Shown: positions 1 through 17,796 of the stretch, piece by piece
How the letters are laid out: the number at the start of each line of letters is the position of its first letter
Numbering within the stretch: the first letter of the stretch is position 1
Assembly: GCA_048885525.1 (NCBI GenBank)
Contig: JBHLLP010000013.1
Location: forward strand, 1-64,000
Length of the DNA: 64,000 nt
Reading direction: 5' to 3'
From: Candidatus Hermodarchaeota archaeon
GTDB lineage: Archaea; Asgardarchaeota; Lokiarchaeia; Sigyniarchaeales; SOKP01
Notes under the pieces: generated by a model
What the model was told of the DNA's origin: nothing
What the model saw: the letters and a program-made list of their open reading frames with translations, nothing else
Database searches by the model: none
Position numbers and translations under genes: made by a program

Positions 1-972
1 AGGTTAATTTCAGTAATAGCACAATTATGGGGATATCTTGGAGTCCCTCCATCAAGATTGAATGCATATGCTTATGTAGCAATGATTATTACTTTTTTAA
101 AATGGGGTGCAGCTTATCCAGTTGGACGATCCCACGCCTTATCAACTTCTATGGTAAAAGCTTTTGAAGAATTAGGTGGCGAGGTACGATATAATGCCTT
201 AGTAAACAGAATAATTGTTGAAAATGGGAGAGTTAAAGGAGTGGAATTACTAAATGGAAATGTATATAATTGTCAAGCTGTAATTTCAAATGTAAACCCT
301 ATATGCACAACTATGAAAATGCTTCCTAGGGATGTTGTGCCTGAGAATTATGTAAAAAAAATATATGCTCCAGAAATCGGTCCCTCTGCCTTTTCGGTTT
401 ATCTGGGATTAAAAGCTTCTTATAAAGAAATAGGATTGAATGCTCATGAATTTGCTATAAGCGAATCAGATGACATGGATAAAGCTTATGAAACTTTTGC
501 CAAACTAGAAGCTCCTAAATTTGTTGTAGCTGGGTGTTATAATCATGTGTACAATGATATTTCTCCTCCAGGAACTGCAGAACTTTGCATAACAACATTA
601 CAAATGGGTAAACTTTGGCATAATGTCTCTCCTGATCAATATCATAAAGTTAAAGATTATCTCTCAGATAAAATGGTTGAACTAATAGAGAAAACTATTT
701 GTCCAGATATACGGGATTATATAGAGGTAGCTGAGGCAGCAACGCCTTTAACTTATTATCGATATTCAAAAAACATGGAAGGAGCAATTTATGGTTATAC
801 TCAAGATTTATTAGATGGGCCTAATCTTAGACTAAAAAGTCGAGGCCCTATTCCCGGGTTATATCAATGTGGGGCTTGGACAAATATTGGTGGTGGATTT
901 TCAGCTAGTATTCTTAGTGGTAGAATTGCTGCAGGTATGTTTTTAAAAGATAATAAAGAAGGGAGGTGGTAA
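1..972 (+). CDS. Phytoene desaturase (CrtI) / retinol saturase-like FAD-dependent oxidoreductase, 5' partial
   Basis: Frame is open from base 1. Motifs YPVGRSHALSTSMVKAFEELGGEV, PSAFSVYLGL, ATPLTYYRYS..GAIYG and PIPGLYQCGAW..GGG match the C-terminal half of the CrtI/RetSat family. Confidence 0.8.
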   Translation, partial: RLISVIAQLWGYLGVPPSRLNAYAYVAMIITFLKWGAAYPVGRSHALSTSMVKAFEELGGEVRYNALVNRIIVENGRVKGVELLNGNVYNCQAVISNVNPICTTMKMLPRDVVPENYVKKIYAPEIGPSAFSVYLGLKASYKEIGLNAHEFAISESDDMDKAYETFAKLEAPKFVVAGCYNHVYNDISPPGTAELCITTLQMGKLWHNVSPDQYHKVKDYLSDKMVELIEKTICPDIRDYIEVAEAATPLTYYRYSKNMEGAIYGYTQDLLDGPNLRLKSRGPIPGLYQCGAWTNIGGGFSASILSGRIAAGMFLKDNKEGRW

Positions 973-2174
973 CCATGGAAAAAGAGATAATGAATGATGT
1001 AAAGAAATATCAAAAGCTTGAGAAATTAAAAAAAATGCGTGAAGAGGTTCAACAAATTCCATGGTATTTTGATGGATTAGAAAATCTCTGCGATAGAATC
1101 CATCCAGAAAAACAGTTCCTTCAAGTTACTGACATAGAAGAATTATCTAACGATACTAAGTTATTTCGATTCATATCTGCAAAACATAATAAACCATTAG
1201 CACCATTTCGGGCAGGTCAATATATTGGTCTTATTGTTGAAATCAATGGAGTTAGAACATCTCGACCTTTTTCATTAGTCTCATCTCCAAATCAACTTTC
1301 ATATTATGAGCTAGCTGTAAAAAGAAAAGAAAATGGATTCGTCAGTAATTACCTTATTGATAAAATAAAAGTTGGAAATATTCTCGAAGCAACAGAACCA
1401 TTAGGGGATTTATATTACAATCAAATATTTCATGGAAAAAATTTAGTATTTATTGCTGGGGGTTCTGGAATTACACCGTTTATATCAATGTTAAGAAACA
1501 TTACTGAGTTTAATTTGAAGCTGAATGTTTGGTTGTTTTTTGGATGTTTAACAGAAGAAGATATATTGTTTAGGACAGAATTAGATAATATTCAATCTCG
1601 ACGTTCCAATATCAAAGTAAAGTATATTCTTTCCGAACCAGGATCCAATTGGAAAGACGCCTGTGGGTTCATTACAAAAGATATAATCTTAGATGAAATA
1701 AAAACTATTGATGATAAATTCTTTTATATTGTTGGTAATAGAGCTATGTATTCCTTTATAGAAGAACAATTAAAAGAGTTAAATATTTCTGGATCTCGAA
1801 CTATCTTTGAATTATATGGTGTTCCTGATGACGTAACTAAAACTGTAGGTTGGCCAAAAGATATTATAGCATCAAATAAGGTAAAGATTATAATAGATTT
1901 CATAAAACAAGGAAAAAAAGTACAAGAAGCTATAGAAGCCCCAAGTATAGAACCAATATTGAATAGTCTTGAAAAAGAAAAGGGTCTAGAATTACTAATC
2001 AATAGTGGATGTCGATCAGGTGCATGTGCATTGTGTAGAACCAAACTTAAATCTGGTAGAGTCTTTTTGCTTCCAGAAGTCAAAATGAGAGAAATAGACC
2101 AAGAATTTGGCTTTATTCATCCTTGTGTGGCATATCCATTGACAAACATTCATTTAGATTTAACTCTAACTTAA
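966..2174 (+). CDS. FAD/NAD(P)-binding oxidoreductase with C-terminal [2Fe-2S] ferredoxin (PaaE/KshB/Hcr-type reductase)
   Basis: Motifs FRAGQY, RPFSLVS and FIAGGSGITPF, plus C-terminal CRSGACALC...C. Overlaps the upstream stop codon, suggesting translational coupling. Confidence 0.88.
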   Translation: MVTMEKEIMNDVKKYQKLEKLKKMREEVQQIPWYFDGLENLCDRIHPEKQFLQVTDIEELSNDTKLFRFISAKHNKPLAPFRAGQYIGLIVEINGVRTSRPFSLVSSPNQLSYYELAVKRKENGFVSNYLIDKIKVGNILEATEPLGDLYYNQIFHGKNLVFIAGGSGITPFISMLRNITEFNLKLNVWLFFGCLTEEDILFRTELDNIQSRRSNIKVKYILSEPGSNWKDACGFITKDIILDEIKTIDDKFFYIVGNRAMYSFIEEQLKELNISGSRTIFELYGVPDDVTKTVGWPKDIIASNKVKIIIDFIKQGKKVQEAIEAPSIEPILNSLEKEKGLELLINSGCRSGACALCRTKLKSGRVFLLPEVKMREIDQEFGFIHPCVAYPLTNIHLDLTLT

Positions 2175-2273
2175 ACAAAAAAAATTGAAATCTTATATTC
2201 CTTTTTATCCAATTATATATTTAATATTATAAATTGATTAAAATAAGTCAAAATGTATAAAGAAGTGTAATAA

Positions 2274-2675
2274 ATGAAAATTTTAACAGAAGAATGGGTT
2301 GAAGCATTCGGTAAAGCTATTAATGAAAATCCGGATTATAAACCATCAGCTTTAACTTGGGAAGGGGATATGCTTCTAGTCATTGAGCCTAGTGGAAATT
2401 TGGATCATGAAGTTAGAATTTTTATAGGTTTATATCATGGAGAATGCACTGGTACTAGATTGATTCCAGAAGGAGAAGAAATTGAAACAGAATATGTTAT
2501 GGCAGGACCTTATGATAATTTCGTATCAGTAATGAAAAAAGAAATTGATCCTATTAGAGCGATAATGGCTGGTAAATTAAGACTTGAAGGAGATATGGCA
2601 AAACTAATGCGACATACTAAAGCAGCCTTAGAAATTGTCAATAGTCTTGGAAGTTTCGAGACAGATTATTTATAA
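2274..2675 (+). CDS. SCP2 sterol/lipid-binding domain protein
   Basis: 133 aa with DPIRAIMAGKLRLEGDMAKLM, the SCP2 signature. Confidence 0.88.
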   Translation: MKILTEEWVEAFGKAINENPDYKPSALTWEGDMLLVIEPSGNLDHEVRIFIGLYHGECTGTRLIPEGEEIETEYVMAGPYDNFVSVMKKEIDPIRAIMAGKLRLEGDMAKLMRHTKAALEIVNSLGSFETDYL

Positions 2676-2735
2676 TTGAATTCAAATTTCATTTTTTTTA
2701 TCAAAATTTTTCTACTAATTTTATGAGGGTAAAAA

Positions 2736-3935
2736 ATGTGGTATTTCTATAGTCCAAATATTATTTATGGTGAGAATAGTCTAGATTTCCTTAATGATAT
2801 TAAAGGTAGTAAATGTTACATAGTAACTGATAAAATTATCGAAGAATTAGGCTATCTAAAAATTCTAACAGATAAATTAGCTAAATTTAAAAAAGAATAC
2901 AAGATATTTAATGAAGTTATTCCAGATCCCAGAGAAGATGGCGTATTAAAGGCGAGAGAAGAGTGCTTATCTTATTCTCCAGAGTTAATAATTGCCTTAG
3001 GAGGGGGATCCGTAATAGATACTGCTAAGACAGCATGGGTTTTATATGAATTTCCAGAGTTAAATATTGGAGATATCCATCTCTTTAGAACTGAATTATA
3101 TGAAACAGGAAAGAAATCAAAATTTATCGCAATACCAACCACTTCAGGAACAGGTTCGGAAGCATCAAATGGTACTATAATTTCAAAATTTGAAGATGAT
3201 ATATGGAAAAAATTCATTTACGCTCATCGAGGAATTACTCCTACCTATGCAATAGTGGATCCTATATTTCCAAAAGGAATGCCTCCAAATTTAACAGTTG
3301 ATACTGCTTTTGATGCATTATCACATGCGATTGAAGGAATGGTTTCTAATTGGAAAAATGAGTTTTCAAATGCAATGGGTTTGAAAGCTATAGAGTTAAT
3401 TTTTAAGTATTTGCCATTAGCTTACAAGGATGGGGAAAACATTGAAGCGAGAGATTATCTTCACCAGGCAGCTACTATGGCAGGTTTAGCGTTTAGTAAT
3501 TCTCAAGTTCATATTGGCCATGGAATGGGTCATAGTTGGGGTGCTATCTTTCATACCCCTCATGGAAGAGCTGTTGGAATTTTACTTCCATATATCTCCC
3601 AGTTTTGTCTAAACAACCCTGATACAAGTGATAATACTTTAGAAGTATATGAAAAAATAGCGAAACAAATGGGATGGGCTAAATGGGCTGATGACAGTAA
3701 AAAAGCAGCATTTAAAGCGGTAGATAAAATTAAAGAACTTCAAAAAACTGTAAAGTTTCCCACTTCTTTAAAGGATTTAGGTGTATCAAAAATAGAATTT
3801 GAGGAAAATCTGGATCTTTTAATTACATGTTGTTTTCAAGATGCTACAGCGGTTATGACACCAAGATCAATTACGGATGAGTACTTTAGAAAAATTTATG
3901 ATTATGCTTATAATGGAAACGACATTGATTTCTAA
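2736..3935 (+). CDS. Iron-containing (group III) alcohol dehydrogenase
   Basis: GGGSVIDTAK, IPTTSGTGSE, DALSHAIE and HGMGH..HG metal ligands. Confidence 0.93.
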   Translation: MWYFYSPNIIYGENSLDFLNDIKGSKCYIVTDKIIEELGYLKILTDKLAKFKKEYKIFNEVIPDPREDGVLKAREECLSYSPELIIALGGGSVIDTAKTAWVLYEFPELNIGDIHLFRTELYETGKKSKFIAIPTTSGTGSEASNGTIISKFEDDIWKKFIYAHRGITPTYAIVDPIFPKGMPPNLTVDTAFDALSHAIEGMVSNWKNEFSNAMGLKAIELIFKYLPLAYKDGENIEARDYLHQAATMAGLAFSNSQVHIGHGMGHSWGAIFHTPHGRAVGILLPYISQFCLNNPDTSDNTLEVYEKIAKQMGWAKWADDSKKAAFKAVDKIKELQKTVKFPTSLKDLGVSKIEFEENLDLLITCCFQDATAVMTPRSITDEYFRKIYDYAYNGNDIDF

Positions 3936-3943
3936 ATCTAATA

Positions 3944-5806
3944 GTGAAGAATATGGGAAATTTAAAGGGATTTGTAGGAAAGTTATTAGTAGTAAACCTT
4001 ACCACAAATGAGATTACTGAAGAAAATCTTAATGAAAAAATAGCAAAAGAATTTTTGGGAGGTGCGGGGTACTGTTGCAAGTATCTCTATGATCATATCT
4101 CTTTTGATACTGAACCATTATCTCCAGAGAATATTTTAATGTTTATGACAGGTCCTTTCTGTGGATCTAATGTTCCTACTAGTGGGAGATTTGTTGTATG
4201 TGCTAAATCTCCTTATACAGGAATATGGGGTGAATCTAATTGTGGAGGTTTTTTTGGTCCAGAGCTTAAAAAAGCAGGTTATGATGGAATTATCATAAAA
4301 GGTGCTTCTGAAAATCCAGTCTATCTAGAAATAACTGATAATGGTACTAATATTAAAGATGCATCCTCTTTATGGGGGAAAGGCATAATAGAAACCTCAC
4401 TAATTTTGAAAGAACAATCAGGCTCAAATTTAACAAGAATATCGTGTATTGGGCAAGCTGGTGAAAAATTAGTTAAATATGCGATTATTGCTTCGGAAGA
4501 AAAAGCTGCAGGAAGAACGGGTATGGGAGCAGTTATGGGATCTAAAAAATTGAAAGCTATAACTGTTCGTGGCAAGAAAAGGGATTTTGAAGCTACTGAT
4601 TCTGAAAAATTTAAAAAAGCAGTCCAAAAAACATTAAATGATGTAAATCAAGCATTCACAACAAAAATGTATGGTGATATTGGTACATCTGCGGGTATAG
4701 ATTTATGGAACAGCACGGGGGAGATACCTAAAAAATATTGGACTTTGGGTGAAGAATGGGAAGGTGCATACAACATTTCTGGTATGACAGCTTTAGAAAA
4801 AACAGTTACCCGAAAATATCCTTGTTTTTCATGCCCAATCGGATGTGCTAAAAAGGCAAAGGTAAAAGAAGGAGAATTTAAAACTGATGATGAAGTTGCA
4901 GCTCCAGAATACCAAACGCTTGCAGGTTTCGGTTCAATGATATTAAATGATAATATTGAGTCAATAGTAAAAGCAAATGAATTATGCAATGATTTCGGAA
5001 TAGATACAATTAGTACTAGCAGTATAATCGCTCTTTTATATTATTTAAATGATTCCGGTCAAATCAAACCAGAACAAATTGATGGTTTGAATCCCAAATG
5101 GGGAGATATTAAGCCAGCTTTAGATTTGATTAAGAAAATCTCATTTAAAGAAGGTATAGGAAACTTACTAGCAGAAGGATCTGATGCAATAGGGAAGGAA
5201 TTTAACATAAGTCAAGATGAAATCGCTACTGTGTATGGTATGGAAGTACCTTACCATGATCTTAGATCTAATTTCGGGATGGCAATTGCTTATGCTATAG
5301 CAGCGCCTAGAGGTCCTTGTCATAACACATGTGATATGTGTACAATTTTATTAGGAACTCCCCTCGAAGAATTTGAAATAGAAACCATTGATAAATATAA
5401 AGATAATTCAGAAATGGCTAAAATGAGTGCTCGAGCTCAAGACTATCGAGCTCTTTACAGTTCATTAGTCTTTTGTGTGTTTGCTAATCCATTACCCTCC
5501 TTAATTGCCGAATTAATAGAAACTGGTATCGGATTGGAATGTGATAATAAGAAACTTAGAATCTACGGTGAGAGAATTTTTATAATGAAAAGAATGTTTA
5601 ATCTGAAAATGGGTGTTACTCCTAAAGATGATAAATTACCTAAAATACTCCTTAATCCATTAGAAGGGACTGAGAGTGCAGGTAAAACCCCTAACTTCGA
5701 ACAACTAAAACAAGAATACTATAAATACAGATCTTGGGATATTAAAACAGGAGAATTGGATCAAGAAAACTTAAAAAAATTAGGTTTGGAAGGACTTAAA
5801 AAATAA
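3944..5806 (+). CDS. aor: Tungsten-containing aldehyde:ferredoxin oxidoreductase family protein
   Basis: KSPYTG..GESNCGG, AAGRTGMGAVMGSKKLKA, CFSCPIGC, DTIS and GPCH motifs. The likely start is the ATG a few codons inside the ORF. Confidence 0.92.
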   Translation: MKNMGNLKGFVGKLLVVNLTTNEITEENLNEKIAKEFLGGAGYCCKYLYDHISFDTEPLSPENILMFMTGPFCGSNVPTSGRFVVCAKSPYTGIWGESNCGGFFGPELKKAGYDGIIIKGASENPVYLEITDNGTNIKDASSLWGKGIIETSLILKEQSGSNLTRISCIGQAGEKLVKYAIIASEEKAAGRTGMGAVMGSKKLKAITVRGKKRDFEATDSEKFKKAVQKTLNDVNQAFTTKMYGDIGTSAGIDLWNSTGEIPKKYWTLGEEWEGAYNISGMTALEKTVTRKYPCFSCPIGCAKKAKVKEGEFKTDDEVAAPEYQTLAGFGSMILNDNIESIVKANELCNDFGIDTISTSSIIALLYYLNDSGQIKPEQIDGLNPKWGDIKPALDLIKKISFKEGIGNLLAEGSDAIGKEFNISQDEIATVYGMEVPYHDLRSNFGMAIAYAIAAPRGPCHNTCDMCTILLGTPLEEFEIETIDKYKDNSEMAKMSARAQDYRALYSSLVFCVFANPLPSLIAELIETGIGLECDNKKLRIYGERIFIMKRMFNLKMGVTPKDDKLPKILLNPLEGTESAGKTPNFEQLKQEYYKYRSWDIKTGELDQENLKKLGLEGLKK

Positions 5807-5820
5807 AGAAAAAAGAATAA

Positions 5821-6645
5821 TTATTTCCATCGCCATTTAGGTTTTGTTTTTTGAAGACGAGCAAGAGCTCCTGCTGTAGCATCTTTAGTTTGCAGTAATT
5901 GTGAACTAACTAGTGTTTCTAATTCTAATCCAAAGGCGGTATCCTTACCATAACAATCATCTATCAATTTTTTTGCAAGTCCCACTGCTAAAGGTCCACT
6001 AGTCATAAGCTCATCAGTATACTTTTGTATAATTGAATCTAATTCTTCATGGTCTTTAGCAACTCGATTTACAACACCAAGTCTATAAGCTTCCTGGCCA
6101 TCAAACATTCGTCCAGTTAAGATAATATCTTTAGTGTTTTGGATACCTACAAGTCTAGTTAATCTAATTGTACCACCTACATCAGGATTCATAGAAATCT
6201 TGCTTTCTAGCATATGAAATTCAGCTGATTGGGTACAGAATCGAAAATCACATGCTAATGCTAACTCAAATGCCATTCCATAACAGTAGCCGTTTATTTT
6301 AGCTATTACTGGTTTTTCCATCTTTTCAATTTTTGTAAAAATAGGATGAATCCAAGTATTTGCAAAATATCTAAAGTTCCTAGGAATTCTTAAATCCGGA
6401 ATGACACCTTCAGGATCTCTTTCTTGGCCTGTTAAAAAGTTTAAATCAATACCTGAACTGAAAAAATCATCTCCTCCAGTAATAATTACTACCCTTGCGT
6501 CAGTTCTTTCAACTTTATCAATTGCTTTTTGAAGTCCAACCATTAAATCATAATTCATTGCATTTTTTTTATCTAATCGATTCATTCTTATGGTTTTAAT
6601 AGTTTTATCTTCGTTTTCTTCTATTAATACTGCATTTTCATTCAT
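5821..6645 (-). CDS. Enoyl-CoA hydratase/isomerase (crotonase)
   Basis: FSSGIDL and KPVIAKINGYCYGMAFELALACDFR motifs, second Glu in MLESK, and PDVGG. Confidence 0.92.
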   Translation of the reverse strand: MNENAVLIEENEDKTIKTIRMNRLDKKNAMNYDLMVGLQKAIDKVERTDARVVIITGGDDFFSSGIDLNFLTGQERDPEGVIPDLRIPRNFRYFANTWIHPIFTKIEKMEKPVIAKINGYCYGMAFELALACDFRFCTQSAEFHMLESKISMNPDVGGTIRLTRLVGIQNTKDIILTGRMFDGQEAYRLGVVNRVAKDHEELDSIIQKYTDELMTSGPLAVGLAKKLIDDCYGKDTAFGLELETLVSSQLLQTKDATAGALARLQKTKPKWRWK

Positions 6646-8820: not shown

Positions 8821-8845
8821 TTTCCCAATATAAATAAAATTTGAA

Positions 8846-10396
8846 TTAAGAATTAAAGATTTTACCAGTTTTTTTTTCTTCTTCTTCACGAAGGGGTTGT
8901 TTCATTATCTTTCCTGTAGGAGTTTTAGGAAGGTCATCTCTAAATTCGACATATTTTGGTACTTTAAAATCCGCTAAATTTTGTTTGCAATATTCGATAA
9001 TCTCTTCTTCAGTTGCAGATTCCCCTTCTTTTAAAACAATAAAAGCTTTAGGAAGTTCTCCATAGATTTCGTCACGTACACCAATGACAGTCCCTAATGA
9101 AACTGCTGGATGAGAGTAAATTACTTCTTCAATTTCACGAGGATAAATATTCTCTCCTCCTCGAATTATCATATCCTTTTTGCGATCTGTTATATAGAAA
9201 AACCCATCTTCATCCATATATCCAATATCTCCCGTATATAGCCAACCATCTTTGAGAGTTTCATTGTTTGCTTCAGGGTTTTTAAAATATTCTTTCATGA
9301 CATTATCTCCCTTAACAACAATTTCACCTTTAGTATTCGGAGGAACTTCTTTTCCATCTTCATTAACAATTTTCATCTCATTTCCAGGTAAAGGAACTCC
9401 AATACTTCCTACTTTTCGTCTATCTTCTGTTTCTGTGGGTAAAGGATTAACTGAAGAAGCACATGTACCCTCCGTTAAACCATAACCTTCTACTATTTTG
9501 CAATTAAATGTATTTTCAAACTCCTTGAACACTTCAACAGGTAATGGAGCAGCACCACAAATAACAAACTCTAATGAAGAAAGATCTAAATTCTCATGTG
9601 GCATCCTTAATAAGATAGAGAGTACAGTGGGAACACAACTGAAAGTCGATGCCTTATACCTAGCAACGGTTTCCCAATGTGTTTGAGCTGAAAATCCAGG
9701 TGTTAATATACAACTTGCTCCAGTTGTAAGTGGTGCCATGACAGTTACTATTTGAGCATTCACATGAAATAAGGGTAAAATTAACATAAATCGATAATAC
9801 TCCTTCGCATCCATGAAATCTCGTATCATCTCAGCATTACGACGAATATTAAAATGAGTTTGTAATACTCCTTTAGGAAAACCAGTAGTTCCTGATGTAT
9901 ATAATATTGCGGCAGGATCTTCTTTTTCATTAATACTTACTTTGGGAGGGGGATCGGTAGATGCTTTTTCCATCAATTCTTCAAATCTTAAGGTACCTTC
10001 GATTGACTCTCCAATTACAATTATATCTTTCAAATCTGGAAGCTCACTTTTAATTTGGTTTACCAATTCCATAAATTTAGGAATAGTTATAATAGCTTTA
10101 GCCTCTGAATGCCCTACTACAAATTTAACTTCTCTAGGTTTAAATAACGCATTTACAGGACCAGTAACTGCACCTATTTTAGGGATACCTAAGTATAAAT
10201 ATACATACTCAGGCATATTTGGTAAATAAACACTAACTTTATCACCTTTTTTAATACCTAAATCGTATAAAAAATTCGCTACTTTATTTGTGAGTTCATT
10301 CAATTGAGCATAAGAAATAGTAATATCATTCCAGTACAGAAATATTTTGTCCTTATAGTTTTTTGCTTGGCTTTCCATTAATTCTCTTAAATTCAT
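8846..10396 (-). CDS. fadD: Long-chain fatty acid--CoA ligase
   Basis: YTSGTTGFPKG, EGYGLTE, TGD, RKKDMIIRGGENIYPREIE and PKTPTGK. Confidence 0.92.
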   Translation of the reverse strand: MNLRELMESQAKNYKDKIFLYWNDITISYAQLNELTNKVANFLYDLGIKKGDKVSVYLPNMPEYVYLYLGIPKIGAVTGPVNALFKPREVKFVVGHSEAKAIITIPKFMELVNQIKSELPDLKDIIVIGESIEGTLRFEELMEKASTDPPPKVSINEKEDPAAILYTSGTTGFPKGVLQTHFNIRRNAEMIRDFMDAKEYYRFMLILPLFHVNAQIVTVMAPLTTGASCILTPGFSAQTHWETVARYKASTFSCVPTVLSILLRMPHENLDLSSLEFVICGAAPLPVEVFKEFENTFNCKIVEGYGLTEGTCASSVNPLPTETEDRRKVGSIGVPLPGNEMKIVNEDGKEVPPNTKGEIVVKGDNVMKEYFKNPEANNETLKDGWLYTGDIGYMDEDGFFYITDRKKDMIIRGGENIYPREIEEVIYSHPAVSLGTVIGVRDEIYGELPKAFIVLKEGESATEEEIIEYCKQNLADFKVPKYVEFRDDLPKTPTGKIMKQPLREEEEKKTGKIFNS

Positions 10397-10515: not shown

Positions 10516-11592
10516 TTAATGAATAATTGCTGGATAAGTTTCTTTGAAATAGCTTAATACAGTATCTGTAAATAATTCTAAAGATTGGAAGTAATTACCT
10601 ACTCCAAATACTTCAATTAAAAAATGCTCTACACCTGCTTCAATGAATTCCTCTATTTGCTCAATACAATCTTCTGGGTTGCCAGAAATGATCATTGAAT
10701 CAATAAGTTCCTCTGGAATGTTTTCCTTAGCAAACTCTGTTGCTTCATTCTGTGATTTAGCCATGTCTGACAAAGTTTCATTAATTACTCGATGGTGAAA
10801 TTTTTCAGGAACCTTTATGTTGTAATCTTCAAGAATATGTGAATTTACACTCATAGCAAGACCAAATGATTTTCCCATCTCTCGTGCGATATCTGGTTTA
10901 TCTTTACTTACTACAACAAATACTTCGCAAGCTTTTTCAATTTCATCCAATCTTCCTGCTTTTCCTAATATATTTAACCGTTTCTTAAATGATTGCGCAT
11001 TGCATATTGGAAGCCAACCATCCGCAACAAGTCCTGTAAACTCAATCAATCTTGGACCATTAGCAGCGATCCACAATTTTGGCAAATTTTTAGTTGGATA
11101 TTGTAATCGGGCATCCTTCAAGTTATAAAATTTACCTGTATAATCAACTCTTCCTTTTCTTGATTGAGTAGTTTTCCATAATTTTTTTATTATTTCAACA
11201 GCTTCAATTAATCTTGTTGCTGGTTTATCCCATTTAATTCCAAATTCATTTAAATTCATTGCTTCTCCAGCACCAATTCCTAGGATAAAACGATCATTAC
11301 TCAACCTTTGAATTGTAAGTGCATCTAATGCTATTTGAGCTGGATGTCTTCTATGAGGATCCGTGACACATGATCCTATTTTTACTTTTTCCGTCTGTGA
11401 AGCAGCAATAGGTATTATTACATTACTACTAACTACTTCAGCATTAATAGGAGATGAATTTAAATGATCCATCATAAAAATTGAGTCATATCCATTTTTT
11501 TCACAATACTGAATTGATTTTAAATATTCTTCTGTTTTTAATCCTAGATATGCAGCATTTGTTCCATGCTGAAAACCAAATTTAACACTCAT
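10516..11592 (-). CDS. LLM-class (luciferase-like, probably F420-dependent) oxidoreductase
   Basis: DH motif, RHPAQIA, RFILGIGAGE, AANGPR and ADGWLP. Confidence 0.85.
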   Translation of the reverse strand: MSVKFGFQHGTNAAYLGLKTEEYLKSIQYCEKNGYDSIFMMDHLNSSPINAEVVSSNVIIPIAASQTEKVKIGSCVTDPHRRHPAQIALDALTIQRLSNDRFILGIGAGEAMNLNEFGIKWDKPATRLIEAVEIIKKLWKTTQSRKGRVDYTGKFYNLKDARLQYPTKNLPKLWIAANGPRLIEFTGLVADGWLPICNAQSFKKRLNILGKAGRLDEIEKACEVFVVVSKDKPDIAREMGKSFGLAMSVNSHILEDYNIKVPEKFHHRVINETLSDMAKSQNEATEFAKENIPEELIDSMIISGNPEDCIEQIEEFIEAGVEHFLIEVFGVGNYFQSLELFTDTVLSYFKETYPAIIH

Positions 11593-11798: not shown

Positions 11799-12701
11799 GT
11801 GATAAAAATGTCAGAACAAGATTTATCAAAAAAATTGATAATCAGTGCTGCTCTCACAGGAGCAGTAACCAATAGAGATATGAATCCTAATGTCCCCTTT
11901 ACTGCAGAAGAATTTGGAGATGAAGTAAAAAAATGTTATGAAGCTGGAGCAGCAATAGTGCACATCCATGCGAGAGATCCAGAAAAAGGTAATCCTACTC
12001 ATGAACTTGAAATTATAGGTGCCATACTTGATAATATAAAAGAAAAAGCTCCAGATATATTAATTAATCTAAGTACCGCAATTAGTTCAATTGTGTCTCC
12101 TAAACAAAGAATTGAGCCTATTAAAACATTTAAACCACCTATAGCTTCATTAAATACTAATTCAATGAATTTTGCAGTAGGAGATCATAAAACTGGACAA
12201 GTTGGACTTGGTGCTAAAAATATTTTTGAAAACACTTTTGATACAATCCAAAAATTTGCAAAAGCAATGCAAAAAGCGGAAACAAAACCAGAAATCGAAG
12301 TATACGATATTGGTGGAATGTATAATATTTTACATTTAGCAAAACAACAACCTAAAAGAATACTGGATCCTCCACTTCACTTTCAGTTTGTATTCGGCGT
12401 TTTAGGAGGAATACCGTTTTCTTATGAAAATTTAGCACATCTTATTAACCTAAAACCTCCGGATGCTACTTGGAGTGTCTGTGGTGTATCTAAAAATCAA
12501 TTTCAAGCCGCAATGTGTGCTGCTGCTATGGATGGTCATATTAGGGTTGGATTAGAAGATAATACAAGATTACCTAATGGTCAATTAGCCAAAGGAAGTT
12601 GGGAACAAGTTGAATGGGCAGCGAAGGTAGCACGTCTAGTAAATCGCGAACCAGCAACTCCCGCTGAAGCAAGAAAAATACTTAATTTATATCAGCAGTA
12701 G
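11799..12701 (+). CDS. Beta-keto acid cleavage enzyme (Kce/BKACE, DUF849)
   Basis: IISAALTGA, HIHARD and HIRVGLEDN motifs. The likely start is the ATG three codons into the ORF. Confidence 0.92.
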   Translation: MIKMSEQDLSKKLIISAALTGAVTNRDMNPNVPFTAEEFGDEVKKCYEAGAAIVHIHARDPEKGNPTHELEIIGAILDNIKEKAPDILINLSTAISSIVSPKQRIEPIKTFKPPIASLNTNSMNFAVGDHKTGQVGLGAKNIFENTFDTIQKFAKAMQKAETKPEIEVYDIGGMYNILHLAKQQPKRILDPPLHFQFVFGVLGGIPFSYENLAHLINLKPPDATWSVCGVSKNQFQAAMCAAAMDGHIRVGLEDNTRLPNGQLAKGSWEQVEWAAKVARLVNREPATPAEARKILNLYQQ

Positions 12702-12714
12702 ATTAGATGTATAT

Positions 12715-12752
12715 TTCTTTAATTTTTTTTATTTTTATTTTATCAATTTTTT
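12715..12752 (+). terminator. Oligo-T tracts, probable archaeal intrinsic terminator between convergent genes
   Basis: Several T runs directly after the BKACE stop codon. Confidence 0.4.
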
Positions 12753-12831
12753 GTGATTTAAGAAAAAAATAGGCATATGAATTTAGTCTAAATAAATATA
12801 TATAAAAAATAAAATAAAAAATTATTAAAAA

Positions 12832-13311
12832 TTATACTTCTTCCCAATATACTATATCTTTTAATGTTCCTTCTCGTTTATCTTTAGATCGAAAAATAGC
12901 TTTAACTTTTACTCCAGCAAAATCTTTACTAAGATCACTTGAATTAATCACACCCAGAATTGCACTTGTAGTGCCTTCAATATCTATAAAGGCAACAATT
13001 TTAGGGCTTATCAAATTTTTCCCATTGGCATTCAGTTTTGCTATGGTAAACAACCTAACGGTACCTACGGGAGGTAATTCTTTCCAATTACTATCTGGAA
13101 TTTCTTCAAAGCAATCTTCGCAATATAAACGAGGAGGACAATACACTTTGCTACATTTAGTACACTTACACGCTAAAAATGTATCGTTTTTCATAATATG
13201 CTTGAAAAACTTATCACCAGCAATTCCACTTGGATAAAAGTAATCTGCTTGCATATCCCCTCTCCAGTGCATTGGAGTAGTTGGATCAGTCTGTTTTTCT
13301 AAGAATCCCAT
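12832..13311 (-). CDS. DUF35 Zn-ribbon/OB-fold protein (thiolase/aldolase accessory subunit)
   Basis: CTKC..PPRLYCEDC followed by an OB fold. Start overlaps the upstream stop (TAATG) and has a GGAGGTG SD. Confidence 0.9.
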   Translation of the reverse strand: MGFLEKQTDPTTPMHWRGDMQADYFYPSGIAGDKFFKHIMKNDTFLACKCTKCSKVYCPPRLYCEDCFEEIPDSNWKELPPVGTVRLFTIAKLNANGKNLISPKIVAFIDIEGTTSAILGVINSSDLSKDFAGVKVKAIFRSKDKREGTLKDIVYWEEV

Positions 13312-13862
13312 TAATCTCCACCTCCTTTCAAAGGTTTGAAATATTTAATATCTGTTATAGAACCTTCTCTTTCATTTTCTGGTTTCCAAACTGCTTTCAC
13401 TTTCATCCCTATTTTGATCTCATCTTTAGTCATTTCTCCAAAATAAGTCATAAAGCCATGATGTGGAGGTGTACCGTCAAGATCAACCACTCCTACAAGA
13501 ATTGGGTCTTCAATTCTACGAGCATCGGGATCAAGATATGATATTGAAAATGTTTCTATAATTCCTGTATCTGGTAACTCTACCCATTCTTCTGTTGGTC
13601 CAAAGCAATATTCACAGAACATTCTTGGGGGTACTATAATTCTTTTACATCGTTTGCAATGGATTCCATAAATTTTACCTTCCTTTAACCCCATTAAAAA
13701 CTTACTCATTGCTGGACCTAAAGACCAACTATATTGAACTTCAGGTTCCCACCATGTATAGGTAATTTTTTTCTCATAAATATCTTTTTCATGAACATGA
13801 GTACCTGGAGCATATGGAGGCCACTCCTTATATTCTTTCTTTTCTACCATCTTTTTTATCAC
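13311..13862 (-). CDS. DUF35 Zn-ribbon/OB-fold protein
   Basis: CKRC..PPRMFCEYC and IGMKVKAVW. The likely start is the ATG at 13850, behind a GAGGTG SD. Confidence 0.9.
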   Translation of the reverse strand: MIKKMVEKKEYKEWPPYAPGTHVHEKDIYEKKITYTWWEPEVQYSWSLGPAMSKFLMGLKEGKIYGIHCKRCKRIIVPPRMFCEYCFGPTEEWVELPDTGIIETFSISYLDPDARRIEDPILVGVVDLDGTPPHHGFMTYFGEMTKDEIKIGMKVKAVWKPENEREGSITDIKYFKPLKGGGD

Positions 13863-13871
13863 CTCTTTAAT

Positions 13872-15035
13872 TTAACCTCTCCGAAGAGCGATTACAGTTC
13901 CCATTTGCATAATATCGCCCCAAGCTTGTGCAACACCAATTCTTGGGTCACCTGGGATTTGCCTTTTTCCTGCTACGCCTTTTAACTGCCAGTATAATTC
14001 ACAAACTTTCTGACCCATCGTTGCGGCTATTGGATTGCCAACGCCTAATAACCCTCCAGAAGGACAAATTGGAAGATCACCATCTCGTTGTGTAACTCCT
14101 TCTCTTGTAAGGATAGGAGCTTCACCTTTTTTACACAATAGTAAACCTTCCATATGATGTAATTCCTTATATGAGAATGGATCATATGGTTCAGCAAAAT
14201 CGATTTCTTTTCTCGGATTTTCAATCTTAGCCATTTTATAACACATTTTAGCAGCTTGAGCAACATAACGAGGGAAATACAAATCCCTATTGGTCCACAT
14301 TGTACTATCGATACTCCAACCAGTTCCAGCTACATAAATAGGATCATCAGTATATTTATGTACTATATCTTTATTACAAAATATTAATGCTGCAGCACCA
14401 TCACTAGGTGGACTAATATCCAATCTGTTTACAGGCCAAGCCATGATTTCAGAATTCAAAACATCTTCTACTGTGATGTTTGGATCCGCTAATTGAGCAG
14501 AAGGATGACCAACCGCATTTCTTTTATTTTTAACTGAAACTAACGCGATATCTTCTTTTTTAATGCCATGAACAGTCATATAACGATTCATTTCCATGGC
14601 AAACAACCATACAAGATTTGGAGTAAGAGGTCTATCTAAGATAGGATCCCAAATATGCCTGAAAGCTGTTTGCGGATGAGGATAACAATTACCCATTTTT
14701 TCTTCACACACAACTAAACATATATCAGCAACACCAGAAGCTACATGCCACCATCCCGCGATTGGAGCAAATACTCCAGTACCTCCACCATTAAATACTC
14801 TAACATATGGTTTACCTACTGCTGCTGATCCATCTATAAGGTTTTCTCCTTTCATGTGGATACCATCGAAGGCATCAGGAGCACTACCCATAACAACCAT
14901 ATCAATATCATCTTTTTCTAAGCCGGAATCTTCCATTGCCATTTTCGTAGCTAAATAAGAAAGTTCTTTTCCAGTTTCTTTTAAATGCCTACGGAAAAGG
15001 GTCATACCGGCTCCTATAACTGCTACTTCTTTCAT
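13872..15035 (-). CDS. SCP-x-type thiolase-fold protein lacking the catalytic Cys (Ltp3-like aldolase candidate)
   Basis: VAVIGAG, SDGAAA, EPYDPF and SGGLLGVGNP motifs. The nucleophile position reads GGGTG. Strong GAGGTG SD. Confidence 0.85.
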   Translation of the reverse strand: MKEVAVIGAGMTLFRRHLKETGKELSYLATKMAMEDSGLEKDDIDMVVMGSAPDAFDGIHMKGENLIDGSAAVGKPYVRVFNGGGTGVFAPIAGWWHVASGVADICLVVCEEKMGNCYPHPQTAFRHIWDPILDRPLTPNLVWLFAMEMNRYMTVHGIKKEDIALVSVKNKRNAVGHPSAQLADPNITVEDVLNSEIMAWPVNRLDISPPSDGAAALIFCNKDIVHKYTDDPIYVAGTGWSIDSTMWTNRDLYFPRYVAQAAKMCYKMAKIENPRKEIDFAEPYDPFSYKELHHMEGLLLCKKGEAPILTREGVTQRDGDLPICPSGGLLGVGNPIAATMGQKVCELYWQLKGVAGKRQIPGDPRIGVAQAWGDIMQMGTVIALRRG

Positions 15036-15050
15036 TTTTTTAACACCTCT

Positions 15051-16307
15051 TTATCCCCTCTTGAAAATTGCTACTGCTCCACTCCCAGAAGGAATGCCTC
15101 TCCATGCTTGAGCAAGTCCGACTTCTGCATCAGCCACTTGTCTTTTAGCAGCATGTCCACGAAGTTGCATAACAATTTCAAGAGCTTTTTGTATCCCTGT
15201 CGCTTCAAAACAATTTCCTACGCCTAAAGAACCACCGGACGTATTTGTAGGAAGTGAACCATTAATTTCTAATGCTCCTTCTTCAATTAATTGTTTTGCT
15301 TCACCAGGTCTGGCAAGACCTAATGCCTCTAGATGTTGAAGTTCCTTATAGGAAAATCTATCATCAACTTCAACAACATCAATTTCTTCTCTAGGTTCAG
15401 AAATCTTAGCCATCTTGTAGGCCATTTTTGCTGCTGTAGTAGCATAGCCCGCATTCATTCCTCTTGTACCTATCCAAGGAGTTTCTGAAGAGTATCCAAA
15501 ACCAGCCAAATAAATTGGTTCAATACCTAGATTCTTTGCTGTTTCATCATCAGCTAGAACAAAACATACTGCCCCATCAACATTAGGGCTGATGTCTAAT
15601 CTTTTAACGGGTTTGAAGAGATATTCAGATTTCATTACATCCTCAATTGAAATTTGAGCTTCATAATCAGCATATGGATTAAAAAATGCATTTTTCTTAT
15701 TCTTTACAACAACAGCAGCACATTGTTCTTCTGTGGTTCCTGTTGTTTTTAAATAATGTTGCATTTCTAATCCCGCCATAAAGTAAGGATGAATTCTTTC
15801 TTTTTCATCAGAACTTCCTACTAATGGTTTTGGAGCTTGTGGAGTGTATTCAGGACTTCCTCCATAATTAGGTCTCTCAACGGGTCCCGAAATAGGGCGT
15901 TCAAATCGGGGATCAAAAGCATGTAACATTATGTCTCCAAAAGTTAATAGATCCGAAATCTTGCTATGTGCTTCTACGGCTACAACATTAATATGTCCAG
16001 TTTTAATTTGCATGTAAGCATTGGCTAATCCAAAAAGTCCATCCCCACATACAGTACAGCAAGGTCTTAGGAGTGCCCCTACTTGATCTGGTACAAATTC
16101 ATCAAAAATACTGAAACCTTCCCAATAATCCTCCGCACATGTTATGAAACTATTGACATCTTTTCTAACATCGATACCTGCATCAACGTAAGCTTTCTTA
16201 CAAGCTTCATACATTATTTCTTTCCATTGTATATCTGGAGTTATCGAATTAAAATTTGTATAACCAATACCAATAACGCATACTTGTCTATCTGCCATTT
16301 TCATCAA
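15051..16307 (-). CDS. SCP-x-type thiolase-fold protein (Ltp4-like partner subunit)
   Basis: VDGAVCFVLA, EVDDRFSYKEL, NTSGGSLGVGN and AQAWRG motifs. First gene of a four-gene operon. Confidence 0.85.
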   Translation of the reverse strand: MMKMADRQVCVIGIGYTNFNSITPDIQWKEIMYEACKKAYVDAGIDVRKDVNSFITCAEDYWEGFSIFDEFVPDQVGALLRPCCTVCGDGLFGLANAYMQIKTGHINVVAVEAHSKISDLLTFGDIMLHAFDPRFERPISGPVERPNYGGSPEYTPQAPKPLVGSSDEKERIHPYFMAGLEMQHYLKTTGTTEEQCAAVVVKNKKNAFFNPYADYEAQISIEDVMKSEYLFKPVKRLDISPNVDGAVCFVLADDETAKNLGIEPIYLAGFGYSSETPWIGTRGMNAGYATTAAKMAYKMAKISEPREEIDVVEVDDRFSYKELQHLEALGLARPGEAKQLIEEGALEINGSLPTNTSGGSLGVGNCFEATGIQKALEIVMQLRGHAAKRQVADAEVGLAQAWRGIPSGSGAVAIFKRG

Positions 16308-16503
16308 TTTTCTTTTCTTTTTTTAAATTGAATTTTCAATACTTTTTTGTAGTTAGATTTTGTTTATTATAGATTTGATATTTTATTCTTATGTTTTATT
16401 TTGATTAAAAACTTTCTAATTGATTGAATTAAACTGGATGGGAAAAATATCCTATTTGAATGAGAAGAAAATTTAAAATCATAAGAAAATTGACTTATTT
16501 ATT

Positions 16504-17796
16504 ATGGATACAAGACTCCCGGAATTTCCAAAAATAGAAATTAGTCGAAGCATTCCTGAATTGGACTTATTAAACAACCCAATCCTTAATGTAAAAGAAA
16601 AGGAGTTTTTAGCTGAATTTTTTGAGTATATGGAAGAGACTCTTGAGAAAGATTTACTTTTATTAGAAGAGTTAAATTATTCAGCTGAGGAACCAATTCA
16701 AGAAAAGAAGCGTGAAATAGTAATTAATTTTATGAAAAAATTAGCAGAGAAAGGATACTATAGTACAGTGATAGATTTTGAACCTCACGAGGTTGGGAAT
16801 GTTACTAGAAATGCTCTTATTGCATTAGCTTTATGCGGAGGATTTTGGTCTCCTAATGCAGATAGATATGTGAATGGTAACTGGAGTATTGAAATGGGTA
16901 GACTAGCAGGAGGAACTCTTTATTGCAATCCTGTGAATTACAAAGCTAATGAATATCAAAGAGAGAAATATCTTATACCTGTTGTAAAAAATGGGTTAAT
17001 GGCAGCTTCTGCTATGACTGAATTTAATGCTGGTAGTGATATCGTAAGAATTGAGTTAAGACTTGATGATCAAGGAAATAAAGTAATAGCAAATGGCAAA
17101 AAACTTTTTATTACCAATGGCATGTTGGCAGAAAACATTATCCTTTACGGTCGACTAAATAGTGGACGATTAGGTGGTATAATAGTAGATACAGAGCATC
17201 AACAACTGAAAAATTTCGATTCTTCGAGAGTTAGAACTTATGGAATGAATGATGCCTTTGTCAGTCGATTAGTATTCAATGATGTTGAGCTTCCCAAAGA
17301 AAATCTTTTAGAAGGAGATGGGTTAGACATTATGTTTCATCAGTTAACTGAAGAAAGATTAGTTATCAGTGCAGAAGCTATAGGTGATTGTATTAAAAAG
17401 CTATTTTATTCTCATAGTTTCGCCCTTCAACGTGAACAGTTCAAACACAAATTACATCAATATCAAATTATTAGATTTCCAATTACAGAAAATATGCGTC
17501 AAACAAATTTATTTCTTTCAGCATTAATCAACTATGCTCGAGAAATTGATACACATCCACAATCAGCCAGTTCTAAATTAATGGCTAATCAAGCTATGGG
17601 ACTAAAAATACAATCATGTGAATTAGCTTTTCAAAGTTCAATAGATTTATATAGAACTATGGGCGGTCGTGCTTTTACAGAGCAATATTGTAATCAATTT
17701 GGGTTATTAGACGCTTTTTGTATGGTACATGGAGGAGGTTCACACTATATCTTGGGTGATGCCGAATCTAGAAGATTCTTTAAGACTAAAGATTAA
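16504..17796 (+). CDS. Acyl-CoA dehydrogenase (divergent)
   Basis: AMTEFNAGSD, NGKKLFITNG, LTEERL, REQF and MGGRAF motifs. Confidence 0.87.
   Translation: MDTRLPEFPKIEISRSIPELDLLNNPILNVKEKEFLAEFFEYMEETLEKDLLLLEELNYSAEEPIQEKKREIVINFMKKLAEKGYYSTVIDFEPHEVGNVTRNALIALALCGGFWSPNADRYVNGNWSIEMGRLAGGTLYCNPVNYKANEYQREKYLIPVVKNGLMAASAMTEFNAGSDIVRIELRLDDQGNKVIANGKKLFITNGMLAENIILYGRLNSGRLGGIIVDTEHQQLKNFDSSRVRTYGMNDAFVSRLVFNDVELPKENLLEGDGLDIMFHQLTEERLVISAEAIGDCIKKLFYSHSFALQREQFKHKLHQYQIIRFPITENMRQTNLFLSALINYAREIDTHPQSASSKLMANQAMGLKIQSCELAFQSSIDLYRTMGGRAFTEQYCNQFGLLDAFCMVHGGGSHYILGDAESRRFFKTKD

Follow-up and report, generated by a model that had tools for sequence, protein, structure and literature searches.

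The island and its core operon

Positions 1-17796 of the stretch analysed here, 64,000 nucleotides of contig JBHLLP010000013.1 from a Candidatus Hermodarchaeota archaeon (the window), contain 15 back-to-back open reading frames (ORFs), each with a clear Pfam or NCBIfam match to an acyl-CoA or redox family. Within this island lies a four-gene operon, T2-T1-DUF35a-DUF35b (12832-16307), that encodes two thiolase-fold proteins and two DUF35 proteins. The operon is tightly coupled, with gaps of 15, 9, and -1 nt (the DUF35b start overlaps the DUF35a stop). The island is a patchwork of acyl-CoA genes, particular to its lineage, assembled around this conserved operon, and T1 is probably the catalytic subunit of a non-thiolytic C-C lyase, as judged from its residues.

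The host genome (G000) is 3.58 Mb in 87 contigs and 99.3% complete, and base 1 of the window is the start of contig C13. Gene calls rest on an ORF listing with Pfam and NCBIfam scans. These scans confirmed the 15 contiguous lipid/acyl-CoA genes of an initial annotation, in which the FNR-like reductase was unnamed.

T1, a thiolase-fold protein without thiolase residues

T1 has lost the catalytic residues of thiolases. Against the canonical paralogs of its own genome and the archaeal thiolase 7yvy, Gly84 (G-G-G-T) replaces the nucleophilic Cys, Y284-D-P-F stands for H-D-C-F, and G-N334-P stands for G-H-P, whereas the paralogs on contigs C43 and C15 keep C-A-S, H-D-C-F, and G-H-P. Gly84, Y-D-P-F, and G-N-P are invariant in 62 of 62 T1 sequences from Asgard archaea, Thermoplasmatota, other archaea, and bacteria. 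Averaged over alignment columns, identity between domains is 80%, and T1 sequences of the two domains are 65-97% identical. With no nucleophilic Cys, no His in the G-H-P site, and neither His nor Cys of H-D-C-F, T1 fails thiolase membership and cannot, on these residues, be an ordinary thiolase. Because the catalytic residues are lost, neither T1 nor T2 can carry out thiolysis through an acyl-cysteine.

In the thiolase-fold proteins Ltp2 (YDHF), Sal (YDCY), and TbSLP (YDCF), Tyr is the catalytic base of a retro-aldol reaction and Gly takes the nucleophile's place (PMC12329534). T1 carries both features, an invariant Tyr284 in a Y-D-x-F/Y motif and an invariant Gly84 at the nucleophile site. 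The NCBIfam "lipid-transfer protein" models PRK06059, PRK08256, PRK07855, and PRK07937 score 167, 156, 110, and 72 bits on T1, all below their cut-offs of 419-469, so that T1 fails membership of these families by sequence. The proposed likeness to Ltp2-type aldolases is therefore upheld in part: T1 has the Tyr base motif and is not an ordinary thiolase, but it lies nearer to archaeal thiolases and misses the lipid-transfer cut-offs. The model that T1 does pass is NF004721/PRK06065, an unnamed "thiolase domain-containing protein" equivalog (663 bits; cut-off 455). One of 14 control genomes likewise passes NF004721, and one of 14 passes NF004722, the model considered for T2 below.

T2, a degenerate protein and probable partner

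After a three-residue deletion, the nucleophile site of T2 reads TV-CGDG; its HDCF and GHP sites read D-D-R-F and G-N-C, and about 35 aa are inserted in the protein. Its equivalent residues vary among orthologs: Cys87 is present in 47 of 69 (Ser in 10, Thr in 7), Asn365 in 48 of 69, and Cys366 in 39 of 69. T2 fails thiolase membership, with a nucleophile-site Cys that is not conserved and no His at the GHP and HDCF sites, and it scores 470 bits with NF004722/PRK06066, just below the cut-off of 516. Because the motif residues of T1 are invariant and those of T2 vary, T1 is the likely catalytic subunit and T2 is probably a non-catalytic, structural partner. Catalysis by T2 through Cys87 and Cys366 was considered and rejected, since both residues vary among orthologs. 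The earlier description of "Cys-less" thiolase-fold proteins thus suits T1 (Gly84) and not T2, which keeps a Cys at the aligned site, albeit one unconserved among orthologs.

Public records name both T1 and T2 acetyl-CoA acetyltransferases. The complete genome G006 appears to have T2 without T1, which is probably an artefact of assembly, since 200 N lie within the locus.

Distribution of the four-gene module

A scan of 185,579 species genomes with the T2 alignment found a T2 relative encoded in 209, and the locus counts given here refer to the 80 best loci drawn from these 209. The archaeal holders are Promethearchaeota/Hodarchaeota, Thermoplasmatota, Hadarchaeota, Bathyarchaeia, Baldrarchaeum, a haloarchaeon, and Methanobacteriota, and the bacterial holders belong to four phyla (Fraserbacteria, Bipolaricaulota/Acetothermia, Armatimonadota, and Thermotogae). 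About 70 of the 80 loci show the full order, with T1 behind T2 and then two DUF35 genes; the exceptions are contig ends or a gap. T2-T1-DUF35a-DUF35b is an invariant, deeply conserved unit, and at the gene level T1 has the DUF35 partner found with the Ltp2 and Sal aldolases.

Outside Asgard, the island genes other than these four are not conserved. The divergent acyl-CoA dehydrogenase ACAD* adjoins T2 in 22 loci, all of them Asgard, and the beta-keto-acid cleavage enzyme family member (BKACE) stands beside the module in 16, again only in Asgard. Elsewhere a divergent class-I CoA-transferase A/B pair adjoins the module (12-13 Thermoplasmatota loci, 6-7 bacterial, and 1 other; a Methanobacteriota metagenome-assembled genome is among the holders), with subunits that fall below every NCBIfam 3-oxoacid transferase cut-off. 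Some Thermoplasmatales have an ACS-type (ACAS_N-type) ligase in this place. Thermoplasmatota add a short-chain-type acyl-CoA dehydrogenase (ACAD), an AMP ligase, a 2-oxoacid:ferredoxin oxidoreductase, and IOR; the short-chain-type ACAD, which is not orthologous to ACAD*, stands beside the module in 13 loci, mostly Thermoplasmatota.

In a T1 tree from a quick search, with outgroups on long branches, the bacteria form one clade, and the clade of the window lies inside a well-supported group in which Asgard and Thermoplasmatota interleave; other Asgard families branch lower. This interleaving indicates transfer between phyla.

The DUF35 proteins and a predicted complex

DUF35a has its CxxC...CxxC pattern, and DUF35b adjoins DUF35a in 69 of the 80 loci. 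In some bacteria, T1 and two DUF35 domains are fused into one protein of about 730 aa, with the gene order kept and YDPF and GNP intact. A search for longer proteins with DUF35a recovered these fusions and no BKACE or SCP2 fusion.

The model of a T1-T2 heterodimer has an ipSAE of 0.94 against 0.00 for the best control, a value that 58 of 80 solved complexes attain, as do 2 of 110 mismatched pairs. Between runs, 91% or more of the contacts agree, and the partner has a pLDDT of 85 or higher. Because the predicted interface is the canonical thiolase dimer interface, this result may mirror likeness to solved thiolase dimers. A T1/T2 thiolase-fold dimer with two DUF35 proteins most likely forms a heteromeric complex.

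Proteins P0122-P0125 (512-624 aa) have a C-terminal domain 58-60% identical to DUF35a, whereas no Pfam family is recognised in their N-terminal 350-460 aa with a threshold as lax as E 0.1.

Layout of the island and its accessory genes

The 15 genes (Table 1) are split over both strands in at least seven transcription units. Apart from the operon, only CrtI-FNR (7-nt overlap) and ADH-AOR (8-nt gap) are tightly coupled. Pfam and NCBIfam find no 3-hydroxyacyl-CoA dehydrogenase and no SDR among the 15 genes; a canonical beta-oxidation cluster would hold a 3-hydroxyacyl-CoA dehydrogenase and a Cys/His thiolase, and the island has neither. The genome does have five 3HCDH genes at other places, including one (3HCDH_N) at window positions 55094-55609, 37 kb from the island. 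The genes 3' of 17796 encode a methyltransferase, an RNase-H-like protein, a response regulator, and GlpD, none related to acyl-CoA metabolism.

GC content is 0.333 in the island, 0.285 at 22001-64000, and 0.38-0.39 in T1 and T2. Together with the T1 tree, these values fit acquisition by transfer, though strong protein conservation may raise GC as well.

Table 1. Genes of the island (window positions 1-17796) with strand and family evidence
Gene product	Position	Strand	Evidence or remark
CrtI/amine-oxidase-like flavoprotein	1-972	+	C-terminal 323 aa only; 5' end cut by contig start
FNR-like FAD/NAD reductase with 2Fe-2S domain	966-2174	+	Pfam
SCP2	2274-2675	+	Pfam
Fe-ADH	2736-3935	+	Pfam
AOR	3944-5806	+	Pfam
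Crotonase-family enoyl-CoA hydratase (ECH)	5821-6645	-	Pfam ECH_1
FadH-type 2,4-dienoyl-CoA/enoate reductase (OYE and Fe-S/FAD/NAD domains)	6808-8820	+	Pfam
AMP-forming acyl-CoA ligase	8846-10396	-	NF004837/PRK06187
Mer-like luciferase-family (LLM) oxidoreductase, probably F420-dependent, accessory	10516-11592	-	Pfam Bac_luciferase
BKACE	11799-12701	+	Pfam BKACE
DUF35b, Zn-ribbon/OB-fold, 159 aa	12832-13311	-	Pfam zf-ChsH2
DUF35a, Zn-ribbon and OB-fold, 183 aa	13311-13862	-	Pfam zf-ChsH2 and OB_ChsH2_C
T1, thiolase-fold, 387 aa, probable catalytic subunit	13872-15035	-	NF004721/PRK06065
T2, degenerate thiolase-fold, 418 aa, first gene of core operon	15051-16307	-	Pfam Thiolase_C_1
ACAD*, divergent acyl-CoA dehydrogenase, divergently oriented to T2	16504-17796	+	Pfam

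ACAD* has isovaleryl-CoA dehydrogenases (IVDs) as its best PDB matches (E 1.8e-24). Its Glu284 (L-T-E-E-R-L, helix G) aligns with the IVD Glu, which places it in the IVD/LCAD type, and H-G-G-G-S replaces the MCAD Y-E-G-T; both motifs are invariant in 23 sequences. The helix-G Glu counts in favour of the initial annotation. No IVD equivalog model in NCBIfam matches ACAD*.

BKACE is a member of its family (PF05853, 315.9 bits; cut-off 24.8) and, at 262 bits against a cut-off of 382 for NF052387, the equivalog of 3-keto-5-aminohexanoate cleavage enzyme (Kce), is probably not the Kce of lysine fermentation. A search for longer proteins with BKACE (at least 526 aa) gave one methyltransferase fusion only, in a size range that leaves out a BKACE-DUF35 fusion of about 450 aa. 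The crotonase has both catalytic Glu residues by alignment to 5zai, and the ligase passes NF004837/PRK06187 (537 bits; cut-off 476). The FadH-type reductase matches E. coli FadH (1ps9) over its full length as the best PDB hit, with E 1.8e-107. For the LLM enzyme, the best PDB match is Mer (2e-29), with an F420 alcohol dehydrogenase at 2.6e-16. The CrtI flavoprotein scores below the CrtI and CrtISO family cut-offs in Pfam and NCBIfam, its N-terminal 194 aa (5' 194 codons) are absent from the whole assembly, and the tie of CrtI-FNR to the rest of the island is weak.

Synteny within Asgard

Genomes and loci are designated here by G and L numbers; G003 is the sister (nearest) species, and L116 represents a distant Asgard family. 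Genomes of the same genus were searched with T2, and 60-kb stretches were compared. The full 15-gene order is kept only in G003, with protein identity of 78-96%, where LLM went undetected at the coverage threshold used. The set BKACE-DUF35b-DUF35a-T1-T2-ACAD is kept in six further genomes of the genus. ECH, FadH, and the ligase stay together in three (G003, G011, and G016), which are also the genomes that keep FadH. Orthologs of the ligase with 87-89% identity occur in G003, G011, G014, and G016, and a ligase 36-38% identical adjoins the module 3' in Thermoplasmatota. Crotonase orthologs (88-96% identity) are found at L029, L037, L039, L047, and L076, and LLM is kept elsewhere only in G011, L047, and L076. 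CrtI-FNR is kept only in G003 and G016, with FNR alone also at L039, and within the genus the SCP2-ADH-AOR trio is kept only in G003.

Among the 53 other genomes of the genus, 10 have a T1 ortholog. More widely, orthologs occur in 27 of 85 genera and in 68 of the 400 genomes from the phylum, a patchiness that marks the module as accessory. In the Asgard family, the module sits in a fixed frame of GlpD, the RNase-H-like protein, sometimes the methyltransferase, ACAD*, T2, T1, and two DUF35 genes on one side and ECH on the other. Between DUF35b and ECH the content varies by genome and may be BKACE, LLM, the ligase, FadH, or additional cassettes consisting of two thiolase-fold genes plus two DUF35 genes (2T+2DUF35), which are accompanied by a second BKACE in L047 and L076. 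Synteny across Asgard therefore holds for T2-T1-DUF35-DUF35 with ACAD* and BKACE and not for the 15-gene cluster; the view of the 18 kb as one system finds no support, given a full set confined to the sister species and a core that is patchy in genus and phylum.

SCP2, ADH, and AOR recur beside the module in other Asgard families, which upholds the link drawn earlier between them and the thiolase-fold genes. L116, whose T1 is 65% identical, has a co-directional run of T2-T1-DUF35a-DUF35b-SCP2-ADH-AOR, and at L113 an AOR lies directly upstream of T2 in a single AOR-T2-T1 run. AOR also stands beside the module at L055, L057, L062, and L077, a group that includes a Hadarchaeota contig, with SCP2 as well at L057 and L062.

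At window positions 17841-19534, a methyltransferase and an RNase_H_2-superfamily protein (PF13482) stand beside ACAD*, as they do in 20 Asgard loci. Both are part of the fixed chromosomal frame and not of the acyl-CoA gene set.

The island of the sister species (L122, G003:C9:326001-343000) reaches about 12 kb farther upstream of CrtI. This extension holds an ECH, an AMP ligase, an ACAD, a second 2T+2DUF35 cassette, a beta-eliminating lyase, and a third thiolase-like/DUF35 pair, and none of its genes has a close copy in G000.

Related thiolase-fold systems

The nearest functional parallels are the Ltp2-ChsH2(DUF35) and Sal-Shy(DUF35) aldolases (PDB 6ok1; PMC12329534). Like T1, they have Gly at the nucleophile site and Tyr first in the motif, and like the module they have an obligatory DUF35 partner, an ACAD and a hydratase upstream in the pathway, and no dehydrogenase or thiolysis step. 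The product of Sal is an aldehyde that is then oxidised, as is proposed for T1. Unlike Ltp2 (His) and Sal (Cys), T1 has Pro as the third motif residue, and it has Asn at the GHP site. Ltp2 and Sal are homodimers with the DUF35 domain carried on a MaoC hydratase, whereas the module encodes two distinct thiolase-fold subunits and two free DUF35 proteins, its hydratase is a crotonase, and its hosts are anaerobes.

Actinobacterial pairs of the Ltp3/Ltp4 type are known by genetics only, according to the account of Wilbrink 2012 given in PMC10398937. A pair on plasmid pLP1 of Rhodococcus qingshengii, which is not annotated as Ltp3/Ltp4, shares the gene order of the module: degenerate subunit, Tyr-bearing subunit, DUF35. 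Its degenerate subunit has the three-residue deletion of T2 before the Cys (RV-CND for TV-CGD), and its second subunit repeats the pattern of T1 with GGAT, Y-A-P-F, and A-N-P. The latter is 35.7% identical to T1, and its best NCBIfam model is PRK08313 whereas that of T1 is PRK06065. The pair lies between a ChsE-like ACAD pair and a MaoC hydratase pair. PRK08313 and PRK07937 are presumably the Ltp3 and Ltp4 models, and the record of M. branderi contains no named Ltp3 or Ltp4.

The pLP1 locus (L123, 31184-46335) is itself a rich cluster. It contains two mycofactocin-coupled SDRs, a thiolase, the ACAD pair, a split MaoC hydratase, a degenerate thiolase-like "hypothetical protein" of 304 aa, a Cys-less thiolase-like protein, DUF35, a class III CoA-transferase, an SDR, and a ligase. 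From its motifs, the 304-aa protein appears to be an unrecognised T2/Ltp4-like subunit.

Archaeal thiolase/DUF35 units, both the mevalonate type and the Sulfolobus ketothiolase (KT), are likewise thiolase-fold dimers held by DUF35 and encoded by adjacent archaeal genes, and they are the closest structures to T1 by sequence. Both Cys and His are retained in the mevalonate-type thiolase, an enzyme that condenses acetyl-CoA, and the C15 paralog of G000 has this pattern, whereas T1 and T2 lack these residues. The Sulfolobus KT is reported to be an active ketothiolase (bioRxiv 10.1101/2024.07.05.601840). The PhlA/PhlC/PhlB complex (PDB 5m3k) resembles the module in combining one active and one inactive thiolase-fold protein with DUF35 in a single operon (PMC2954200). 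Its active member, PhlC, is a catalytically active thiolase-superfamily protein (PMC2954200), and the match of T1 is weak (E 6.6e-14). The module and the Phl system are separated further in one respect: PhlA presumably belongs to another branch of the thiolase fold.

Two loci of G000 deserve mention. On contig C15 (G000:C15:20258-26469), a CoA_trans pair (20258-21523, -) and the canonical Cys/His thiolase (25058-26269) are 3.5 kb apart, and a DUF35 gene (26368-26469) comes after the thiolase. The C15 thiolase/DUF35 is probably a mevalonate-type unit, and the nearby CoA-transferase-like pair recalls the pairing with T2-T1 in other phyla. On contig C33 (G000:C33:27116-28309), a third thiolase-fold paralog has G-P-A-S-G with no Cys at the nucleophile site and keeps H-D-A-F and G-H-P; judged by these motifs, it is another "thiolase" unable to use the usual nucleophile.

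A proposed retro-aldol cycle

The favoured explanation, given an even chance, is that the module encodes a heteromeric retro-aldol lyase that replaces dehydrogenase and thiolase and yields an aldehyde, which AOR oxidises. What is observed is the gene content with its synteny and distribution, and the residue patterns with the degree to which they are conserved; from these we infer the complex, the reaction and the direction in which it runs, and the roles of AOR, ADH, SCP2, and BKACE. The enzyme would be a T1/T2 dimer stapled by two Zn-ribbon/OB-fold DUF35 proteins. In the proposed cycle, the ligase would form an acyl-CoA, the IVD-type ACAD would yield the 2-enoyl-CoA, and the crotonase would hydrate it. 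T1, with Tyr284 as base, would then make a retro-aldol cut in the 3-hydroxyacyl-CoA that releases acetyl-CoA and an aldehyde shortened by two carbons, a step that would bypass both dehydrogenase and thiolase. AOR would convert the aldehyde to the acid and reduce ferredoxin, or Fe-ADH would reduce the aldehyde, while SCP2 may carry a hydrophobic intermediate. The acid would be re-activated by the ligase, or in other lineages by the CoA-transferase pair or the ACS-type ligase. BKACE and the CoA-transferases could use acetyl-CoA to turn a free acid into its CoA ester, which would fit re-activation; the same chemistry also fits an acetoacetate-centred reading.

Hydration with a subsequent retro-aldol cut would suit the combination of ligase, ACAD, crotonase, and lyase, which includes no dehydrogenase; ligase, ACAD, and crotonase make up the sequence that feeds Ltp2 and Sal. 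The second set in the sister species, in which an ACAD, a ligase, and an ECH accompany a 2T+2DUF35 cassette, likewise fits a lyase fed by dehydrogenation and hydration, as do the two non-orthologous ACAD types beside the module. As to the substrate, SCP2 suggests a hydrophobic chain, and the data would allow for a hydrophobic acyl chain that may be branched; they do not point to an isoprenoid or sterol chain. A hydration and retro-aldol route that removes branch points had been put forward in the initial annotation. The gene set without a dehydrogenase agrees with its non-thiolytic cleavage, but in this genome a chain could not be degraded past its first beta-methyl branch and would stall at a methyl ketone.

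Several observations weigh against the retro-aldol lyase. The third motif residue is His in Ltp2, where it belongs to the oxyanion hole, and Cys in Sal, where it is the catalytic acid (PMC12329534); in T1 this position is the invariant Pro286, which leaves T1 without an evident general acid. Ltp2 in addition has a second Tyr, Tyr344. The PDB similarity of T1 is greater to archaeal thiolase (E 3e-43) than to Ltp2 (6ok1; E 1.6e-18), and an AlphaFold2 model of T1 from a 19-row alignment is poor, with a mean pLDDT of 65.8 and active-site loops below 50. In Thermoplasmatota and bacteria, T2-T1-DUF35-DUF35 comes after a CoA-transferase A/B pair or an ACS-type ligase, and the operon lacks a hydratase; such an arrangement resembles the ato-type acetoacetate operon and fits a 3-oxoacyl-CoA enzyme equally. 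The AOR link is also weakened: G000 has 12 AOR-family matches, so an AOR near any given locus is not rare, and the AOR, ADH, and SCP2 links hold by sequence at the family level, not as strict orthology. BKACE has no clear place in the scheme. A literature search found no description or biochemistry of the T1/T2/DUF35 family.

Alternative explanations

A possible if doubtful alternative, compatible with the retro-aldol lyase, confines the functional unit to the core operon with ACAD*, BKACE, and perhaps ECH and regards the outer genes as gathered at a hot spot for acyl-CoA genes. The outer genes (CrtI-FNR, LLM, FadH, and possibly SCP2-ADH-AOR) would then, at similarly doubtful strength, share no substrate. 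The fixed Asgard frame with its variable content between DUF35b and ECH points in this direction, as do the seven or more transcription units on both strands and the transfer indicated by the T1 tree, where Asgard and Thermoplasmatota interleave. It accounts less well for SCP2-ADH-AOR being operonic with the module in L116, for AOR in L113, or for the joint retention of ECH, FadH, and ligase in G003, G011, and G016.

It is unlikely that T1, T2, and the DUF35 proteins form an unusual 3-oxoacyl-CoA enzyme, a thiolase or Claisen type with a non-cysteine mechanism, that handles acetoacetyl-CoA. Equally unlikely is the companion proposal that the CoA-transferase pair, the ACS-type ligase, or BKACE supplies or consumes acetoacetate, as in ato-type and lysine-fermentation operons. 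Databases do call T1 and T2 acetyl-CoA acetyltransferase, yet T1 has neither Cys nor His at any of its three catalytic sites, and the nucleophile-site Cys of T2 is Ser or Thr in a quarter of orthologs. Outside Asgard, a class-I CoA-transferase pair or an ACAS_N-type ligase adjoins the module, and the Asgard neighbour BKACE belongs to a family that makes acetoacetate from a beta-keto acid and acetyl-CoA; however, the CoA-transferase subunits miss all NCBIfam 3-oxoacid transferase cut-offs. Canonical Cys/His thiolases, moreover, are encoded elsewhere in the genome, on C15 (followed by DUF35) and on C43.

A dedicated anaerobic route for isoprenoid lipids (phytol, archaeal chains, carotenoids) or sterol side chains that uses all 15 genes together, as first proposed, is very unlikely. 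Nothing tested points to such substrates, and CrtI-FNR and SCP2-ADH-AOR are the least conserved parts of the island: CrtI-FNR is confined to G003 and G016 (FNR alone at L039), and the full SCP2-ADH-AOR to G003, although the presence of a CrtI-family flavoprotein and SCP2 within one island, an IVD/LCAD-type ACAD, and the aldolase-motif Tyr of T1 would all suit it. The actinobacterial look-alike pair, clustered with a ChsE-like ACAD pair and a MaoC hydratase pair, speaks for it as well, whereas T1 fails every "lipid-transfer protein" cut-off. Outside Asgard, the module sits with CoA-transferases, ACS-type ligases, and 2-oxoacid:ferredoxin oxidoreductases and is kept in Thermoplasmatota and bacteria without isoprenoid-type neighbours. 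In G000, a 99.3%-complete genome, no carboxyltransferase and no acetone-carboxylase-type (hydantoinase-B-type) gene was found. This cuts both ways: with no carboxylase route for beta-methyl branches, retro-aldol cleavage is the only known chemistry left, but because those genes are missing, a beta-methyl chain would stall at the methyl ketone, and this ketone, cleaved from a 3-methyl-3-hydroxyacyl-CoA, would have no known anaerobic route onward. The recurrent link to AOR points to aldehyde products and, with them, to unbranched C3 positions.

A synthetic direction is similarly improbable. Here an aldehyde made by AOR from an acid and reduced ferredoxin would be joined to acetyl-CoA, then dehydrated and reduced, which would give chain elongation or fatty-acid synthesis without a thiolase. 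Aldol reactions are reversible, the island has AOR, ECH, and a FadH-type enoyl reductase, and KT/DUF35 complexes, pairs of which are abundant in Asgard, drive the condensation of the Sulfolobus fatty-acid synthase (bioRxiv 10.1101/2024.07.05.601840). The Sulfolobus enzyme, however, is described as a ketothiolase active in condensation and thiolysis, the island has no NADPH ketoreductase, MaoC dehydratase, or MDR enoyl reductase, and a module found in 68 of 400 genomes of the phylum is ill-suited to a core lipid pathway.

A leucine/isovalerate route to acetone and acetyl-CoA, to which the IVD-type ACAD and the 2-oxoacid:ferredoxin oxidoreductase and IOR context in Thermoplasmatota would lend themselves, is kept as a minor possibility only, because SCP2 and AOR point to larger, aldehyde-forming substrates.

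Possible significance for anaerobic carbon-chain metabolism

Extended beyond the island, the retro-aldol lyase would form part of an undescribed variant of beta-oxidation in anaerobes of several archaeal and bacterial phyla, composed of ACAD, hydratase, retro-aldol lyase, tungsten AOR, and re-activation by ligase, CoA-transferase, or BKACE. This wider proposal is rather speculative. If it is true, the variant trades one thioester per turn for a low-potential (ferredoxin) electron pair, which during syntrophic growth could offset the energetic cost of the uphill step catalysed by the acyl-CoA dehydrogenase.

Ketothiolase/DUF35 pairs average 3.8 per Asgard genome and have been read in a preprint as a hint of fatty-acid synthesis (bioRxiv 10.1101/2024.07.05.601840). 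If the variant exists, many of the Asgard "acetyl-CoA acetyltransferase/DUF35" pairs counted for fatty-acid synthesis would not be thiolases. With a widespread T1/T2 family that lacks the catalytic residues, caution is needed with these counts and with metabolic models that build on them for Asgard, Thermoplasmatota, Bipolaricaulota, and Fraserbacteria. The four-gene operon, with T1 conserved at 65-97% identity across two domains, makes the proposal directly testable by co-expression. If the lyase reading is true, a reaction so far known only in the degradation of steroid side chains would be a general tool of anaerobic carbon-chain metabolism with its own bioenergetic logic.

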